Assembly: GCF_032191835.1 (NCBI RefSeq)
Contig: NC_083226.1
Span: 89,900,001 to 89,964,000, forward strand
Length of the DNA stretch: 64,000 nt
From: Heteronotia binoei
Lineage: Eukaryota
Direction: 5' to 3'
Part shown: positions 45,696-55,976 of the stretch, piece after piece
Layout: each line of letters starts with the position of its first letter
How positions within the stretch are numbered: the stretch's first letter is position 1
Made by a program: the position numbers and the translations under genes
Notes under the pieces: model-generated
The model's input: the letters and a program-made list of their open reading frames with translations, nothing else
Told to the model about the DNA's origin: nothing
Database searches by the model: none

Positions 45696-45878
45696 ATGTC
45701 CGGCCCCTTCCCAGCCGAGCCAGCTTGCAGGCTATAGGCTGGGGGCCGTCTTTGCATCCCCGGAAGGAGGGAGGGGCAGCAGCATCACCCGACATACGGG
45801 TGTTTTAGCAAGGCGTGGAGGTGGGGCTTTATAAGCCCCGGCTCCCGCCTCACTACGCAGTTTGTTTTCGGCTCTCTG
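45696..45878 (+). repeat. Ngaro repeat A1 (183 bp, promoter-bearing)
   Basis: Identical to 51765-51947; contains TTTATAA (TATA-like) at 45828-45834. Confidence 0.97.
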
Positions 45879-46698
45879 TGAGAGAGCCACGTTCGTCCGG
45901 CTGCTGCAGGGTCGAGGCCTGGGCGGCTGGGTCGGAGCTTCCTTGAACAGCTGATCGGCGGCTGGTGCTTCGGCGGCGGGGCGCGCTTGCGGCGGCTGTG
46001 CTAAGCGGCGTGGGGGCTTCCGAGGATCAGCTGTTTGGCGCGGCGAGGCGCGCTTGCGAGGCTCGGACCTTGGAGTCAGCTGTGGGGCCTTGGCGGCGAG
46101 ACGCGCTTGCGGCGGCGAGACGCGCTTGCGGCGGCTGAGTAGCGCTGTGAACGGCTAACAGTATCCGAGGCTTGGGGGCGGCCGGGACGGTCCGGGACGG
46201 CACGGGCGCTCTTTTTGCAAGGCCCCTCTTGGTGGGCCGACTCGGGGAGGCAGTTGCCGGGCCATTTCCACCTTCATTGTTTTGCCTTAGCAGGGCAGGC
46301 GTAGCGGCCCCCTGCTTACCGGGAACGTGGGTGGCTGGCTAGTACTGGGCGGACACTTCTCCTGAAGTTTGCTTCTTTGGAAGCTGAGCCGGGTTCCTCT
46401 TGCTGTTGGGGTGGTGAGCCACTCCACCCTGGTTTTCTTTTCCCGAGGGGAGAGTTTTTGGGTCCTGGTGCTTGGGCTTGGCCTTTAGCTACCCCCCCCC
46501 ACCCTCATCTTAACTTCATTACCTGCTGGGTTGGAAGTTCCAGGGGTGGTGCCTGTCTCGGGTTGGGTGGTAGTTTGGGTCTACCCCATTAACAAAGGAG
46601 CATACACCTCCTCTTATCGGTTGAGGTGGGTGGGGCTGAAAGGGGCCTTTGGGTGGTCAGCAAGCCCCAGCCTTGCTCATTGCTGGTCGCAGTAGAGG

Positions 46699-48228
46699 AT
46701 GGCACCAAAAAAGGGACAGGGCAAGTCCAAGGGCAAGCAGCCTGCTCGCCCACCCCGGGGGCGGGGTCAGCAAGGAGCCCCATCCGAGGATCAGGGCAAT
46801 AGTGAGCGGGTTCGTCTCGCCATCATGAGTCAATTAGATGCCCTCGAACAGGAACGTGTGGCCAGGGGTGCCCCCATTTGGGAGGGCCGTCGCCATGCCA
46901 CCGGCCGGTTGGCGCGGCTGACTTTTGAATCTGAATTGCTTGCAAGGCTGTCTGCTTTACAGGGTGGGCAGTCGGAGCCTGAAGCGCCGCTGGAACCTGA
47001 CCAAGAGGAGGATCCAGGCAAAGGCCCATCGGGCATGCCATCGGGCGACGCGGCATCTGGAAGCGGGGGGCCGCAGCCCCCTGGAGGTTCGGGCGTCTTT
47101 CCGGGTGATAGTGGTAAGCCCCTTGCTTTGCCTGTTCAGGGTTGGCCTTGGGGCCCCGTCCAGCCAACCCCCCATCTGCTGGGGGTGAACGCGGTGGGGT
47201 GGGGGCCCGGGTGGTTAGGTGCCAATGAACAGTTGGGCCCCGCTCAGCCGTGGGCTTGGGGTTTGCATTCTCCCAGCTTGATGTCTAGTGCAGTTTCTGC
47301 CCCTATTGGTCAGCAGGTGGGCGCTGGGGCGCCTCCGGCAGCCCCTCCCTCACTGCCCACACCAGGCATTTTGCCTTGGGGTGGTCAGCAGGGGGCACAG
47401 TTGCAGGGGACGTGGCCTGCAGCTCAAGGGGGTGGGTGGTTCTATCCCCCGAACCCCTATGCAAGTATTCCTTTTTATGCTCTCCCTTATGGCGACACTT
47501 CCTTGCCTTTGGGGGACCATCTGACGGCGTCCACGCGTGAGAAAATTCTCCGCGGGGAGTACGTGGATGTTTTTGGTCTCTTGTTTAGAGAGCTCGAGAA
47601 GAAAAGTAAGGACGAGCTCGACGACAGGGACAAGGAAAAGCTTAAGCGTAGGAAGATTGACAGGGCCTGGGCAAATTGGCTGCCTGGTTTCCTGATCTAT
47701 GCCGGGGTCATCGCAAGAGCACAGCCGGCTAGGGCGGCGGCCCTCTTTCAGTATATAGACATAGTCTATAGGGCCTATACGGACTTCGCCGGTGCAGCGT
47801 GGCTGCAATACGACAAAGCTTTCCGGATGCGTGCCGCCGTCAATCCTGGAATGCCGTGGGACCAAATAAATCAGCAGCTGTGGTTGCAGCTGATGGCCCC
47901 AGCAAAACCTAATGCTGGGGAAAGGTCCGATAGTGGCCATTTGGTGCAGAGATCACAGCAACAGCAGACAACCCCAGGTGCCCGCGTTTCCGCGGGCCAG
48001 CCGGTTCAAACCCGGTTGGTGTGCTGGGAGTTCGCTTCCAAGGGGGTCTGTCCCAGGAAGCCCTGTAAATTCCGTCATGAATGTCCGCTGTGCAGTGGGG
48101 CCCACGCACTGTCGGCCTGCAGTCGATCAAAGCCTGGAGCTGGTGGTAAGCGCCCCGGGGGTGGTGGCGGCGGTTCACAGCCTCCTGGAAAAGGGGCCCA
48201 GCCCCATCCGCCTGCCGGCTCTCAGTAG
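46699..48228 (+). CDS. Ngaro ORF1, Gag-like (509 aa) with C-terminal CCCH + CCHC zinc fingers
   Basis: ATG-initiated and uninterrupted; CWEFASKGVCPRKPCKFRHECPLCSGAHALSAC; conserved middle block EYVDVFGLL...WLQYDKAFRMRAA...WDQIN..LWL. Confidence 0.9.
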   Translation: MAPKKGQGKSKGKQPARPPRGRGQQGAPSEDQGNSERVRLAIMSQLDALEQERVARGAPIWEGRRHATGRLARLTFESELLARLSALQGGQSEPEAPLEPDQEEDPGKGPSGMPSGDAASGSGGPQPPGGSGVFPGDSGKPLALPVQGWPWGPVQPTPHLLGVNAVGWGPGWLGANEQLGPAQPWAWGLHSPSLMSSAVSAPIGQQVGAGAPPAAPPSLPTPGILPWGGQQGAQLQGTWPAAQGGGWFYPPNPYASIPFYALPYGDTSLPLGDHLTASTREKILRGEYVDVFGLLFRELEKKSKDELDDRDKEKLKRRKIDRAWANWLPGFLIYAGVIARAQPARAAALFQYIDIVYRAYTDFAGAAWLQYDKAFRMRAAVNPGMPWDQINQQLWLQLMAPAKPNAGERSDSGHLVQRSQQQQTTPGARVSAGQPVQTRLVCWEFASKGVCPRKPCKFRHECPLCSGAHALSACSRSKPGAGGKRPGGGGGGSQPPGKGAQPHPPAGSQ

Positions 48229-49810
48229 GTTATTGGAGGCATACCCGAGCAGGGCTGATGCCCGATGTTTACAGGATGGATTTACTCTGGGGTTTCGGAT
48301 TCCGTACAGGGGGCTTAGGGCCCCCTTTTTAGCCCCCAACCTAAGATCGGTTGTTGGGCTTGAACATGTGGTTCAGGATAAAATAGCCAAAGAATGTCAG
48401 GAAGGCAGGGTCCTTGGACCCTTCGATGCGCCCCCGGTGCCCACATTGAGGGTATCCCCGTTGGGGGTGGTGCCCAAGAAGGCTGCGGGTGAGTATCGGA
48501 TTATCCACCACCTGTCTTATCCTAGGGGAGCTTCGGTGAACGATGCTATTCCTGAGGAACTTTGCTCAGTGCGCTATACTTCATTTGACCAAGCGGTCAA
48601 AGTAGTTCGCGGCTGCGGGGTTGGGGCGGAGTTGGCGAAATGCGACATTAAGTCTGCATTTCGTCTCTTGCCCGTCCACCCCGATGATTTTGAGTTATTG
48701 GGTTTTTCCTTTGAAGGGAAATTCTATATAGACCGGGCATTGCCGATGGGATGCTCCATTTCCTGTGCAGCGTTCGAGCGGTTCAGTTCCTTTTTGGAAT
48801 GGGCGCTCAGGGTTAGGACGGGGGTTAACGACACGGCGCATTACCTGGACGACCTCCTTTTCGTCGGTCCAGCTGGATCTGGTCAGTGCGCCAGGTTGTT
48901 ACACTCCTTTCAGGAGTTAGCCCTCGAACTTGGGGTGCCACTGGCACACGAAAAAACCGAGGGCCCCAGCACAGTCCTTACTTTTTTAGGCATTGAGCTG
49001 GATACTCTCCAGCAGACATCACGTTTACCGGGGAATAAGGTCTCTGACCTTAAGGGCCGGTTGGCCACCTTGAAGGGGCAGCGTAAAGTTTCCCTGCTAG
49101 AACTGCAGCAGGTGGTGGGCCACCTTAACTTTGCTTGCAAAGTGGTGGCCCCAGGCAGGGCCTTTTTGCGACGCTTTTGCGACGCCATGGTCCGGCTGCG
49201 CCTCCCCCACCATAGGGTCCGGGTCAATGCTGGAATGAGAGCTGACCTGGAGGTTTGGGAGGAGTTTCTGGAATCCTTCAACGGTGTTTCCTTCTGGAGG
49301 GAGGACCTGAAGATTGAAGCAGAGCTTCAGATTTCTTCAGACGCGTCCGGTGCCAGCGGTTTCGGGGTATACTTTAGGGGCCATTGGTGTGCTGAGCAAT
49401 GGCCTGCTGAATGGTTGGATAGCGGGCTCTGTAGAGATCTCACGTTTCTGGAATTTTTTCCCATCTTGGTGGCCGTTTGCCTGTGGGGAGAGCAGCTTGC
49501 CAACCATTCAGTTCTGTTTTGGTGTGATAACATGGCCGTAGTACATGTTATCAATTCCTTGACTTCTAAATCGACGGCGGTCATGAATCTGGTTAGGTTT
49601 TTTACCCTACGTTGCCTCCGGTTGAATGTTTTATTCCTGGCCAGGCACGTACCGGGTGTATGCAATGGTGTGGCGGATGCTCTGTCTCGCCAACAGATGG
49701 AGCGTTTCCGGCAGTTGGCCCCAGAGGCAGATGCATGTCCGGCGGAAATGCCCGCGGAGCTCTGGAGGCTTGAGAAAAGGAAGCCGGTAGGGCCATTCAG
49801 TTGGCGCTAG
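47912..49810 (+). CDS. Ngaro ORF2, reverse transcriptase + RNase H (open frame; first ATG at 48077)
   Basis: VSPLGVVPKK, YRIIHHLSYP, KCDIKSAFR, LPMG, YLDD; RNase H SDASG, LEFFP, CDN, NGVADALSR; overlaps ORF1 in the +1 frame. Confidence 0.95.
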   Translation: MLGKGPIVAIWCRDHSNSRQPQVPAFPRASRFKPGWCAGSSLPRGSVPGSPVNSVMNVRCAVGPTHCRPAVDQSLELVVSAPGVVAAVHSLLEKGPSPIRLPALSRLLEAYPSRADARCLQDGFTLGFRIPYRGLRAPFLAPNLRSVVGLEHVVQDKIAKECQEGRVLGPFDAPPVPTLRVSPLGVVPKKAAGEYRIIHHLSYPRGASVNDAIPEELCSVRYTSFDQAVKVVRGCGVGAELAKCDIKSAFRLLPVHPDDFELLGFSFEGKFYIDRALPMGCSISCAAFERFSSFLEWALRVRTGVNDTAHYLDDLLFVGPAGSGQCARLLHSFQELALELGVPLAHEKTEGPSTVLTFLGIELDTLQQTSRLPGNKVSDLKGRLATLKGQRKVSLLELQQVVGHLNFACKVVAPGRAFLRRFCDAMVRLRLPHHRVRVNAGMRADLEVWEEFLESFNGVSFWREDLKIEAELQISSDASGASGFGVYFRGHWCAEQWPAEWLDSGLCRDLTFLEFFPILVAVCLWGEQLANHSVLFWCDNMAVVHVINSLTSKSTAVMNLVRFFTLRCLRLNVLFLARHVPGVCNGVADALSRQQMERFRQLAPEADACPAEMPAELWRLEKRKPVGPFSWR

Positions 49811-50676
49811 CTCCTAGTACAAGGAGGGCATATGCCAGAGTGACCGCTCAGTTTGGTGAGTTCAGGAGGGCTCTTGCTCTCCCGGAGCGCTGGCCGATTC
49901 CTGTGGTGCACATCATGCGATTTTGCGTGCACCAGAAGGAAAGAGGCTTGGGGTTAAAAACCATAAGGGGACATTTGGCAGCATTGGCCTTTGAAAGCAA
50001 GGCCCGCGGCCTTGTTGAGTCCACGGGGGACTTTAGAGTTAAGAAGATGCTAGAGGGCTGGGCACGGGAGCGGGTCCGGCAGGTAGATGACAGACAGCCC
50101 ATATCCCCGTCGGTCCTCCGTGGATTGTTTGGGGGTTGGCCTAGTGTCTGCTCTTCCCCATTTGAGTCGGCATTGTTCCACGCTGCCTCGCTGTTGGCCT
50201 TCTTCGGGGCCCTGCGCGTAAGCGAGCTGGTAGTGCAGTCAAAGGCTGACACTTCTGGGAGGGCGCTCCAATCCGGAGATGTAAAAATTACCAATAGTCA
50301 GCTGATTCTGACGATTCGCCGGTCCAAGACTGATCAGAGGCAGAGGGGAGCCATCATCACGATCGGCATGTGTGCAACGCAGGAATTATGTCCGGTTAGG
50401 GCTGTTCGTCGCTACGCCCAGCTCAGGGGCGAGGTCCAAGGTCCTTTTCTTAGGCATGATGATGGCTCCCCTCTTACCAAATATCAGTTTTGGTCGGTCA
50501 CAAGCAAGGCCCTGGTTCGATTGGGTCTCACGGGCGTCAAATTCGGGACGCATTCCTTCCGGATCGGGGCGGCCTCCACAGCCGCTGCTATGGGCTACAC
50601 GCCCTCTGCCATTCGGCATATCGGCCGATGGTGGTCGGCGGCTTACAAGTCCTATGTACGCCCCCTGGTCACCTAG
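49801..50676 (+). CDS. Ngaro ORF3, tyrosine recombinase (ATG at 49735 is cut off by in-frame TGA at 49771)
   Basis: Catalytic set FFGALRVSE (R), RSKTDQ (K), HSFRIG (HxxR), GRW (W), YKSY (Y); N-terminal LAPSTRRAY. Confidence 0.92.
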   Translation: MALAPSTRRAYARVTAQFGEFRRALALPERWPIPVVHIMRFCVHQKERGLGLKTIRGHLAALAFESKARGLVESTGDFRVKKMLEGWARERVRQVDDRQPISPSVLRGLFGGWPSVCSSPFESALFHAASLLAFFGALRVSELVVQSKADTSGRALQSGDVKITNSQLILTIRRSKTDQRQRGAIITIGMCATQELCPVRAVRRYAQLRGEVQGPFLRHDDGSPLTKYQFWSVTSKALVRLGLTGVKFGTHSFRIGAASTAAAMGYTPSAIRHIGRWWSAAYKSYVRPLVT

Positions 50677-50718
50677 CAGGTAGGCGGTGGGTTGGTTTAT
50701 TGTTTTGCGCATGTCATG

Positions 50719-50741
50719 CTGACTGTTGTTTGTTTTTTCAG
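50719..50741 (+). promoter_or_regulatory. 3' splice site (branch point CTGAC + U-rich tract + CAG|G)
   Basis: CTGAC 50719-50723, TGTTGTTTGTTTTTTCAG 50724-50741. Confidence 0.75.
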
Positions 50742-51337
50742 GTGCTGTGGCTCGTGGTGAGAGAAGGTGGGTTCTCATCTGCGGGCACAGCATGGTTTTT
50801 TGGGCTGCCCATTTCGCCAGACAGTCTCCTGTGGGCACCCAGCTTGGTCTCGGTGCGTGGGCCACTGTGGAATGGCTGGGTCGTCGGGGGCTGCGTTGGC
50901 CCGGGATCATGCCTCTGTTGTTCAGGGAACGGAAGGCGTTACCTCCACACATTCTTGTCGTTCATTTGGGAGGGAACGACTTGGGATTGCTGCGTGGGAA
51001 GGCTCTTTCCCAGCAGGCGTTGGCCGACCTCCGCGAAATTCGGCGCAGGTGGCCTGGGGTTATATTGGTGTGGTCGGCAATTTTGCCGCGCAGGGTGTGG
51101 AGGTACGCCTTTTCGCCGGGTGGAATTGAACGGGCCAGACGTAAGGCCAATAGGGCCATTCAGAAGGCCATGGAGGAGGGACTAGGAATTTTCCTCCCTC
51201 ATCCGGCCATACGGGTCGACCAAGGCGACCTGTATCGGCCTGATGGTGTTCATTTATCGGATTTGGGCAACCGGGCCTTTTTAGATGAAATTCGGCAGGG
51301 GGTGCGGCTGGCTCTGGGCCACCCGTTGGGGCGCTAA
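50742..51337 (+). CDS. Ngaro ORF4, SGNH/GDSL-type hydrolase, probably a spliced terminal exon
   Basis: Block I GHS, block II Gly, block III HLGGND, block V DGVH; preceded by branch point and TTTTTTCAG acceptor. Confidence 0.88.
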
Positions 51338-51366
51338 TGCCTAAGCAGAGGCTTGGCATTGGCGGT

Positions 51367-51765
51367 GGCTGGATGAGGTTTGGCCACAGGGTTTCCCAGG
51401 GGAGCACCTATGGCCTAGCACCGTTGGTGCGGTGGTCTGCAGGAATCGTAGATGGGCTAAACGGCTCAGTACGGTGATGCAGATCACAGGGAGCCTCACC
51501 TGGGTGGATCTTTCCATGGGGATTGATGCCAGCCCGGTTGGTGATGGCTGGAGGCCTGGCCGCTCAGTTACAACCCGATTTCGGCGGGTTTGTGCTGGGG
51601 GCAGGGTGGCTCGCCCTTTGGACAAGGCGGGGTCCAGGTGTTGACCCCAGGGCTTGTCTGGTCTGGTTTTCCCCCCCTGCCAGTTATATTTGTTAATTCT
51701 AATAAAGCGGCCCGGTTTAAAACCCAACAATTGTGTCTGCCTCTTCTTTCCGACTGGGGGGGCAA
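51367..51765 (+). repeat. Ngaro repeat B1 (399 bp)
   Basis: Matches 52110-52508 with 3 substitutions; AATAAA at 51701-51706. Confidence 0.97.
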
Positions 51766-51947
51766 TGTCCGGCCCCTTCCCAGCCGAGCCAGCTTGCAGG
51801 CTATAGGCTGGGGGCCGTCTTTGCATCCCCGGAAGGAGGGAGGGGCAGCAGCATCACCCGACATACGGGTGTTTTAGCAAGGCGTGGAGGTGGGGCTTTA
51901 TAAGCCCCGGCTCCCGCCTCACTACGCAGTTTGTTTTCGGCTCTCTG
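51765..51947 (+). repeat. Ngaro repeat A2 (183 bp)
   Basis: Identical to A1; abuts B1 and shares one A. Confidence 0.97.
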
Positions 51948-52109
51948 CCCGCCCACCCTTCTCATTGGCAGTACAGGTGTATGCCGGTCGCCTTTTGGGG
52001 CCAGGTAGGAATTTTTTCACTCCCGCACAATTGGCCTATGCGGGGGTGTTTTTCGCCTACCTTGTACTGCCTAGTAGGCTGAGTTTTGTCAAGTATTAGT
52101 TTGGTCGCA

Positions 52110-52508
52110 GGCTGGATGAGGTTTGGCCACAGGGTTTCCCAGGGGAGCACCTATGGCCTAGCACCGTTGGTGCGGTGGTCTGCAGGAACCGTAGATGGGC
52201 TAAACGGCTCAGTACGGTGATGCAGATCACAGGAAGCCTCACCTGGGTGGATCTTTCCATGGGGATTGATGCCAGCCCGGTTGGTGATGGCTGGAGGCCT
52301 GGCCACTCAGTTACAACCCGATTTCGGCGGGTTTGTGCTGGGGGCAGGGTGGCTCGCCCTTTGGACAAGGCGGGGTCCAGGTGTTGACCCCAGGGCTTGT
52401 CTGGTCTGGTTTTCCCCCCCTGCCAGTTATATTTGTTAATTCTAATAAAGCGGCCCGGTTTAAAACCCAACAATTGTGTCTGCCTCTTCTTTCCGACTGG
52501 GGGGGCAA
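52110..52508 (+). repeat. Ngaro repeat B2 (399 bp), with polyadenylation signal
   Basis: Matches B1; AATAAA at 52444-52449; ends GGGGGGGCAA at the right junction. Confidence 0.97.
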
Positions 52509-55315: not shown

Positions 55316-55362
55316 TAAAATGGTTTTACAAACTTAAAACTTTGTAAAAATGGTTTTACAAA

Positions 55363-55680
55363 CTGCAAAGCCTGCTCTCCATTTGGCTTCCTTCCTGCAT
55401 CTTTCTGTTGTGCAGAAAAAGACTAGCCTTGAAGACTGACACAGGTTGCAATGCCTGAGCTCTGTTTGGCTTCCTTCCTTCCCCCGTCTCTGTGTTGTGC
55501 AGAGAAAAGCTAGCCTTAAAGACTGACACAGGCTGCAAAGCCTGCACTCCATTTGGCTTCCTTCCTTCCTGCATCTTTCTGTTGTGCAGAAAAAGGCTAG
55601 CCTTGAAGACTGACACAGGCTGCAAAGCCTGAGCTCTGTTTGGCTTCCTTCCTTCCCCCGTCTCTGTGTTGTGCAGAGAG
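55363..55680 (+). repeat. Minisatellite with alternating A/B ~83-87-bp monomers (ABAB)
   Basis: Monomers start at 55363, 55446, 55533 and 55620; monomers 1/3 and 2/4 are more alike than neighbours. Confidence 0.9.
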
Positions 55681-55976
55681 GAGCTGGGCTACCTCTCCTT
55701 CCTTCTTCCCCCCTTTCAGGTTTTAAGAGAAAAACTGGAGTCCACTGGCACTTTAGACCCATGAAGTGTTCTTCAAGGTATGAGCTTTCATGTACCTTGC
55801 AGTATGTTCTTTTGGGGAGATTTCCCCAGGAGGCCTGAGCAGCAAAGGGGGGGGGATGTTTTTTTTTTATTCGAGAGGGGAAGGGAGTGGGCATTCCAGT
55901 AGCTTTTTTTTTTTTTTTACCAAATGAGCCCTGGACAGAATTGTTGCTGGCTGGGGTCATCAAATGGTGAGTAAGG

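Follow-up and report, generated by a model that had tools for sequence, protein, structure and literature searches.

The Ngaro element in the window

According to our analysis, a complete Ngaro tyrosine-recombinase (YR) retrotransposon spans positions 45696 to 52508 of the window, the 64,000-nucleotide (nt) stretch of the Heteronotia binoei genome analysed here (contig NC_083226.1, positions 89,900,001 to 89,964,000 of the forward strand), and its SGNH esterase is very probably reached by splicing from its first open reading frame (ORF1). The element is assigned to Ngaro from its structure, with split direct repeats A1, B1, A2, and B2 and four frames, and from its hydrolase ORF; PAT-like and VIPER elements likewise carry split repeats. 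The frames follow the order ORF1, reverse transcriptase and RNase H (RT/RH), an overlapping YR frame, and the hydrolase after the YR, with the RT and GDSL domains scoring above the Pfam cut-off and the YR below it. The window proteins show 64 to 70% similarity to gecko proteins. The features, all on the plus strand and in window coordinates, are given below; a slash within a motif marks the splice site.

45696..45878, +, split direct repeat A1, 5' end of the element; 100% identity to A2 over 183 nt
46699..48228, +, ORF1 (putative Gag), unspliced, 509 amino acids (aa); open frame, no Pfam match, about 50% identity to the ORF1 of other families
46699..47113, +, exon 1 from the ORF1 start onwards (ORF1 codons 1-138 and one further nt); fused to the SGNH exon by genomic copies L074 and L073
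47111..47119, +, donor 1, GTG/GTAAGC, phase 1, the used donor; conservation and exact junction in two genomic copies
47894..49810, +, Pol frame (RT, RNase H), within the intron; Pfam RVT_1, E 1.1e-11
48022..48120, +, Cys/His zinc-finger region, ORF1 residues 442-474, outside the supported product; recognized from the sequence
48143..48151, +, donor-like site 2, where ORF1 and Pol are double-coded; not supported, no use in spliced copies or models
49679..49696, +, candidate phase-1 acceptor before the recombinase frame, CAG/ATG at 49696/49697; 17 of 18 elements, model junctions map there
49774..50676, +, tyrosine recombinase frame; Pfam Phage_integrase, E 0.0021, below cut-off
50719..50741, +, CAG acceptor with its branch point (CTGAC) and pyrimidine tract; present in all 30 close copies
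50742..51337, +, SGNH hydrolase exon; Pfam PF13472 Lipase_GDSL_2, E 2.8e-12, and SGNH fold matches
50723..51337, +, open stretch of the SGNH frame (ORF4); open-frame listing
51367..51765, +, split direct repeat B1; repeat of B2
51765..51947, +, split direct repeat A2; repeat of A1
52110..52508, +, split direct repeat B2, 3' end of the element; repeat of B1

Splice signals and re-integrated spliced copies

The SGNH frame is closed upstream by a TGA stop at 50720 to 50722, and its first in-frame ATG, at 50792, lies directly 3' of the catalytic Ser codon (50789), so that initiation there cannot yield an active enzyme. The frame is entered instead, in the proposal of a first-pass annotation made from the sequence alone, through the CTGAC at 50719, a T-rich tract, and CAG/G at 50741/50742, from either of two GTG/GTAAGC donors in ORF1, at 47113/47114 and 48145/48146. 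The coordinates and phases given there for the splice signals and the stop, and the place described for the first ATG, are all confirmed in the window sequence, and so is the arithmetic of the predicted products, of 336 aa (intron of 3628 nt) and 680 aa (intron of 2596 nt). Of the 24 YAG sites of the element listed as pyrimidine-rich, the acceptor has the tract with the most T (12 of 15 nt). The identification of ORF4 as an SGNH hydrolase also holds, given its Pfam match, the presence of the catalytic blocks (Ser 50789, Gly 50888, Asn 50975, Asp 51242, His 51251), and a predicted fold that matches PAF acetylhydrolase, TesA, and other SGNH enzymes. Its best sequence match in the PDB is the ZfL2-1 esterase (4C1B, E 0.001), which ranks only 43rd by fold.

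CTGAC and CAG/G are present in 30 of 30 close copies, the best 30 of the 40 copies listed, the window included. Across families, 24 loci were considered, comprising 19 parsed as unspliced, the 2 spliced copies described below, 2 wrong-strand parses (one of which shows the acceptor site when re-examined), and 1 without a GHS match. All 19 parsed unspliced loci, from four families whose enzymes are about 35%, 60%, 66%, and 90% identical to that of the window, carry YAG/G in phase 1 exactly 41 nt before the glycine of GHS. An upstream in-frame ATG of the SGNH frame, which the first-pass annotation had not found in the window, is absent from all 30 close copies and from 16 of the 19 cross-family loci.

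At donor 1, TG/GTAAG is invariant in the 30 close copies, in which only 50 of the 220 four-fold sites of ORF1 are invariant. A homologous phase-1 G/GTAAG, located 9 to 10 residues before a conserved WPWG motif, occurs in 14 of 14 elements belonging to three families of about 50% ORF1 identity; this set consists of the window and 13 of 20 refetched regions, the other 7 being the 2 spliced copies and 5 regions whose ORF1 5' end could not be used. Given the Gly-Lys pair, the donor-1 codons are expected about 20% of the time. Phase 1 is not counted as evidence in itself, since all five GTRAG motifs in ORF1 are in phase 1 (NGT-AAG codon pairs) and a shared phase alone is therefore weak evidence.

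The 47113^50742 junction exists in the genome as re-integrated complementary DNA copies, which bears out the proposed splicing from ORF1 into the SGNH ORF. When the genome was searched at the protein level, two loci, L074 and L073, matched leader and esterase in one open frame (2 of 112 scored loci), and a second protein query returned the same two among 117. Both consist of ORF1 residues 1 to 139 followed by SGNH residues 7 to 204 or 203, with an exact junction to the equivalent of 50742 and an open frame of 336 codons. L074 is 99.0% identical to the unspliced locus L130 up to the donor and 99.5% from the acceptor, and the only large difference between the two is a stretch of 1323 nt, starting with GTAAG and ending with CAG, that is missing from L074. 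The termini of L074 are those of the family, and its flanks differ from those of L130. Because L074 lacks only the GT-AG intron in comparison with a 99% identical unspliced sibling, we infer from the termini, the flanks, and this exact loss that it is a separate insertion of re-integrated spliced RNA. L073 is 75.9% identical to L074 and its nearest relatives are unspliced, the two that have the 5' part carrying the donor at the same place, which argues for a second, separate event. The splice signals and their conservation are in this way directly observed, as is the precise removal of the intron from two re-integrated copies; with its GT-AG ends, branch point, and tract, the intron is of the major spliceosomal class. 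Such copies are plausible, given that the reverse transcriptase of DIRS-1 reportedly acts in trans (PMC7192593). Junction-pattern counts are lower bounds: a strict pattern found 0 copies (control 269), both spliced copies differing from it, and a looser one, which excluded L074 by design, found L073 only.

Several further observations concern these copies. L073 (G000:C2:164341113-164345108) carries A1 and just one B repeat, and lacks A2 and the second B. L074 (3264-3553) and its sibling L130 have an additional, partial B repeat between A2 and B2. L130, L131, L132, and L082 are derivatives with different internal deletions, the L130 type being multi-copy; in L130, L131, and L132 nearly all of Pol and the recombinase is gone, but ORF1 and the esterase frame are both still open and the acceptor is kept. 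A YAG directly precedes the G-ATG of ORF1 in several copies (L130:3218, L074:1498, L132:2515) and could be a candidate acceptor in the 5' untranslated region, which L074 retains unspliced.

Gene models in other species and a candidate recombinase acceptor

Among 92 database representatives, 36 match both the ORF1 N terminus and the esterase of the window, and 2 more match with a short esterase piece only. Fusion models come from Eublepharis macularius, Anolis sagrei, A. carolinensis, Hemicordylus capensis, Elgaria multicarinata, and Rhineura floridana, together with one partial Gekko kuhli record that is flagged unverified. When 240 stored proteins were classified with profiles, the leader profile being built partly from the same models that it classified, 53 were leader plus esterase, 3 leader plus recombinase, and 0 leader plus ORF1 core plus esterase. 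The modelled proteins point to the splice route in squamates only.

Exon 1 may well be a leader shared by two spliced products, joined either to the esterase or, through the acceptor at 49696/49697, to the recombinase frame, an extension of the esterase splice that we hold to be slightly better than even. This probable second acceptor was not part of the first-pass annotation. Three Hemicordylus models (P0118 to P0120) consist of leader plus recombinase, and two three-exon models (P0068, P0090) agree with them; in all five the junction residue falls 24 residues before a conserved Trp, as predicted from the CAG/ATG of the window, and the end of exon 1 in P0118 resembles that in the leader plus SGNH model P0012. 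The recombinase frame has no conserved ATG between the acceptor site and its first helix, and the site is found in 17 of 18 elements and 37 of 37 close copies. However, conservation of the CAG was rejected as evidence, since the same triplet codes for Gln in Pol, which uses CAG for 12 of its 14 Gln codons. The models come from two species, and the junction of another, P0005, is one residue off. Spliced genomic copies of the leader plus recombinase type gave 0 matches in one search, which had no positive control, and 0 of 88 in another. The window copy itself has an in-frame stop at 49771-49773, between the acceptor and the recombinase frame; 3 of 37 copies have this stop. For a leader joined to Pol through donor 1, the 8 copies examined offer no acceptor that is both in phase 1 and preceded by a strong tract, and the one Pol match in 120 that carries the leader runs through ORF1 residue 397.

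The esterase is also found in models of host genes. Isoform models named TSG101 (P0092, P0093, P0096 to P0100, P0102), of about 408 aa and from Lacerta, Podarcis, Varanus, Euleptes, and Sphaerodactylus, join a UEV domain to a Ngaro-like SGNH domain, and these may represent a conserved host capture of the esterase exon; our literature search found no account of TSG101 joined to SGNH. Other such models include DUSP12 (two geckos), a ZNF318-like protein (snake), a similar unnamed protein, a keratin, and a vomeronasal receptor (P0079, P0086; P0008, P0016; P0001, P0003). As to the surroundings of the element, a tandem repeat with an 87-nt period lies at 55358-55690 of the window, and a second Ngaro-type pair of recombinase and esterase lies about 14 kb past the window end (G000:C4:89977769-89979320).

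The predicted leader-esterase product and its significance

We think that squamate Ngaro elements make a spliced subgenomic mRNA yielding a leader-esterase of about 336 aa, with a probability of roughly 0.9, a figure that covers the splice route and the product only. In L074, the first 25 residues of this product are basic (8 Lys/Arg, no Asp/Glu), helices are predicted at residues 30-55 and 72-88 with low confidence (predicted local distance difference test of about 50-67), and an acidic disordered linker is followed by a basic SGNH domain (isoelectric point 11.9). A prediction of self-association of the leader helices, made without an alignment, scored 0.02, which speaks neither for nor against it. 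No hydrophobic signal or membrane segment is present, the maximum 19-residue hydropathy being 1.04, and 0.24 in exon 1; the term env-like used in the first-pass annotation therefore suits the RNA layout, with its spliced 3' ORF, but not the product. Likewise, the proposed fusion of Gag and esterase is correct in that the N terminus of ORF1 is joined, but overstated, as the 138 codons of exon 1 contain neither the conserved ORF1 core nor the zinc fingers. What the supported product carries is a basic, helical ORF1 leader, and "ORF1 leader fusion" describes it better.

The Ngaro hydrolase ORF is known and has been called functionally unproven (10.1101/2021.08.05.455354, PMC6681497, PMC7192593). 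Xenopus DIRS-53_XT and DIRS-54_XT have the same A1-ORFs-B1-A2-B2 repeats and the order gag-like, RT/RH, YR, SGNH, but their hydrolase is treated as a separate ORF "with no proven function" (10.1101/2021.08.05.455354), whereas here it is an exon fused to the ORF1 N terminus; the strings "splic" and "intron" have 0 occurrences in the available part of that paper. In the searchable literature, judged by title or abstract, we found no description of the Ngaro esterase splice and no account of how the downstream ORFs of Ngaro elements are expressed. Two kinds of known system are similar. Esterase ORF1 proteins (ORF1ps) of ZfL2-1, CR1, RTEX, and Penelope-like elements share the helical N-terminal part, basic peptide, poorly conserved linker, and SGNH esterase; they have a coiled coil and no structured RNA-binding domain, liposome binding has been shown, and the non-long-terminal-repeat ORF1p is not a Gag homolog (PMC3905857). 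However, the ZfL2-1 type is one contiguous ORF1 of a long interspersed nuclear element (LINE) and dimerises through its coiled coil, while the present protein belongs to a YR element, is built by splicing alongside a full ORF1, and has two low-confidence predicted helices, so the likeness is only in how the proteins may work. Long terminal repeat (LTR) elements also express env or ORF3 as a 3' ORF from a spliced message, and some ORF3s are GDSL/SGNH esterases, as in bdelloid Vesta1 (PMC5408684); in contrast to these, the Ngaro element belongs to the YR order, with split repeats, and its product retains 138 residues of ORF1 and lacks any signal or membrane segment.

A longer form, in which donor 2 would give a functional 680-aa isoform joining ORF1, zinc fingers included, to the esterase, is unlikely. 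Its G/GTAAG is in frame and invariant in 30 of 30 close copies, and it recurs in two further relatives of family 1. However, donor 2 lies where ORF1 and Pol are double-coded, and across families only 3 of 14 elements have it in frame, with 1 more out of frame; the check on conservation across families that the first-pass annotation suggested thus bears out donor 1 (14 of 14) and the acceptor (19 of 19) but not donor 2. The two donors, described as identical and strong, are so only in the window copy; at -2 of donor 2, C takes the place of T in 25 of 30 relatives. No genomic copy using donor 2 was found in the junction-pattern searches, with their lower-bound counts, no gene model uses it, and none of the 240 stored proteins combines leader, core, and SGNH; the alternative choice between two donors and the 680-aa protein are thus without support. 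Model P0083 joins a piece of the ORF1 core, without zinc fingers, via the recombinase start. The absence of a structured RNA-binding domain from esterase ORF1ps (PMC3905857) likewise means that the short product resembles the ZfL2-1 layout and the long one would not. In the overlap concerned, all 8 copies examined have a Pol frame that stays open for 108-109 codons within ORF1 (47894-48228 in the window), and many Pol models of other species begin at a Met inside the zinc-finger overlap.

We likewise regard it as improbable that the splice occurs and gives only a non-enzymatic or host-favoured by-product, such as a truncated ORF1 that dampens transposition. The spliced copies have not multiplied, as such a by-product would have it, but the catalytic residues are kept among 76 loci, some of which may repeat (Ser in 74, Gly in 76, Asn in 74, Asp in 73, His in 74), the ratio of nonsynonymous to synonymous substitution rates (dN/dS) of the SGNH frame is 0.09-0.25 in those 6 of 8 comparisons in which dS is defined, and subfamilies that have lost Pol and recombinase still possess ORF1, the acceptor, and an uninterrupted SGNH frame.

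Several points weigh against the spliced leader-esterase as a whole. Only 2 spliced copies were found, whereas unspliced exon starts number at least 269; there are 3 nt of microhomology at the junction, and deletions unrelated to splicing occur elsewhere in the family. The close copies were chosen with queries containing the splice signals, so the cross-family loci from the protein search are the stronger test of the acceptor, and 3 of the 19 have an upstream in-frame ATG. The database fusion proteins are predicted gene models, and the amphibian models have long N termini with no match to the squamate leader profile. In the RNA data (two runs of one study, covering 0.09 of words), none of the 15 joints seen, of 40, fits the predicted junction; these are contigs only, also cover the intron, and are uninformative either way. 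Even so, it is very improbable that the fused copies are microhomology deletions and that the esterase normally arises by non-AUG initiation (CTG/TTG codons open the SGNH frame at 50723), reinitiation, or post-recombinase frameshifting, because two lineages with 76% identity share both breakpoints, at GT and AG, while the other deletions of the family have differing ones, and because branch point, tract, and YAG position are still conserved where the proteins are only 35% identical. The spacer from the recombinase stop to the acceptor, 61 to 70 nt long in 29 copies, takes all three frames, which argues against readthrough or frameshifting.

In the spliced leader-esterase route that we prefer, the spliced mRNA would start like the genomic RNA, use the AUG of ORF1, leave ORF1 at codon 139, and join the SGNH exon, and the resulting protein of about 336 aa would consist of basic peptide, two helices, flexible linker, and esterase. 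Translation of the fusion and its catalytic activity are expected from the reading frame and the retained residues. The leader, common to ORF1, may bring the esterase into the ribonucleoprotein particle of the element, where it could bind or remodel membrane lipids, as proposed for the ZfL2-1 ORF1p esterase. This function, a leader-targeted esterase acting on membrane lipids with assembly of the particle on membranes, is the one that we prefer by analogy, tentatively and at somewhat less than even odds. The spliced RNA would keep both terminal repeats, allowing occasional copying and integration. A broader scheme, about as tentative, is splicing like that of complex retroviruses, with one ORF1 leader on three bodies (ORF1 core, recombinase, and esterase), where the leader would be an assembly or targeting tag loading both enzymes and the same acceptor would have enabled host capture, including the lizard-wide TSG101-esterase.

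The protein to study would then be the 336-aa leader-esterase and not the bare ORF4, and annotation based on ORFs would misread Ngaro elements. The recombinase may need the same leader, which is relevant to reconstituting YR-mediated integration. The splice route would explain how the esterase long noted in Ngaro elements is produced, and a YR retrotransposon and LINEs would reach a similar leader-linker-esterase layout by different routes.

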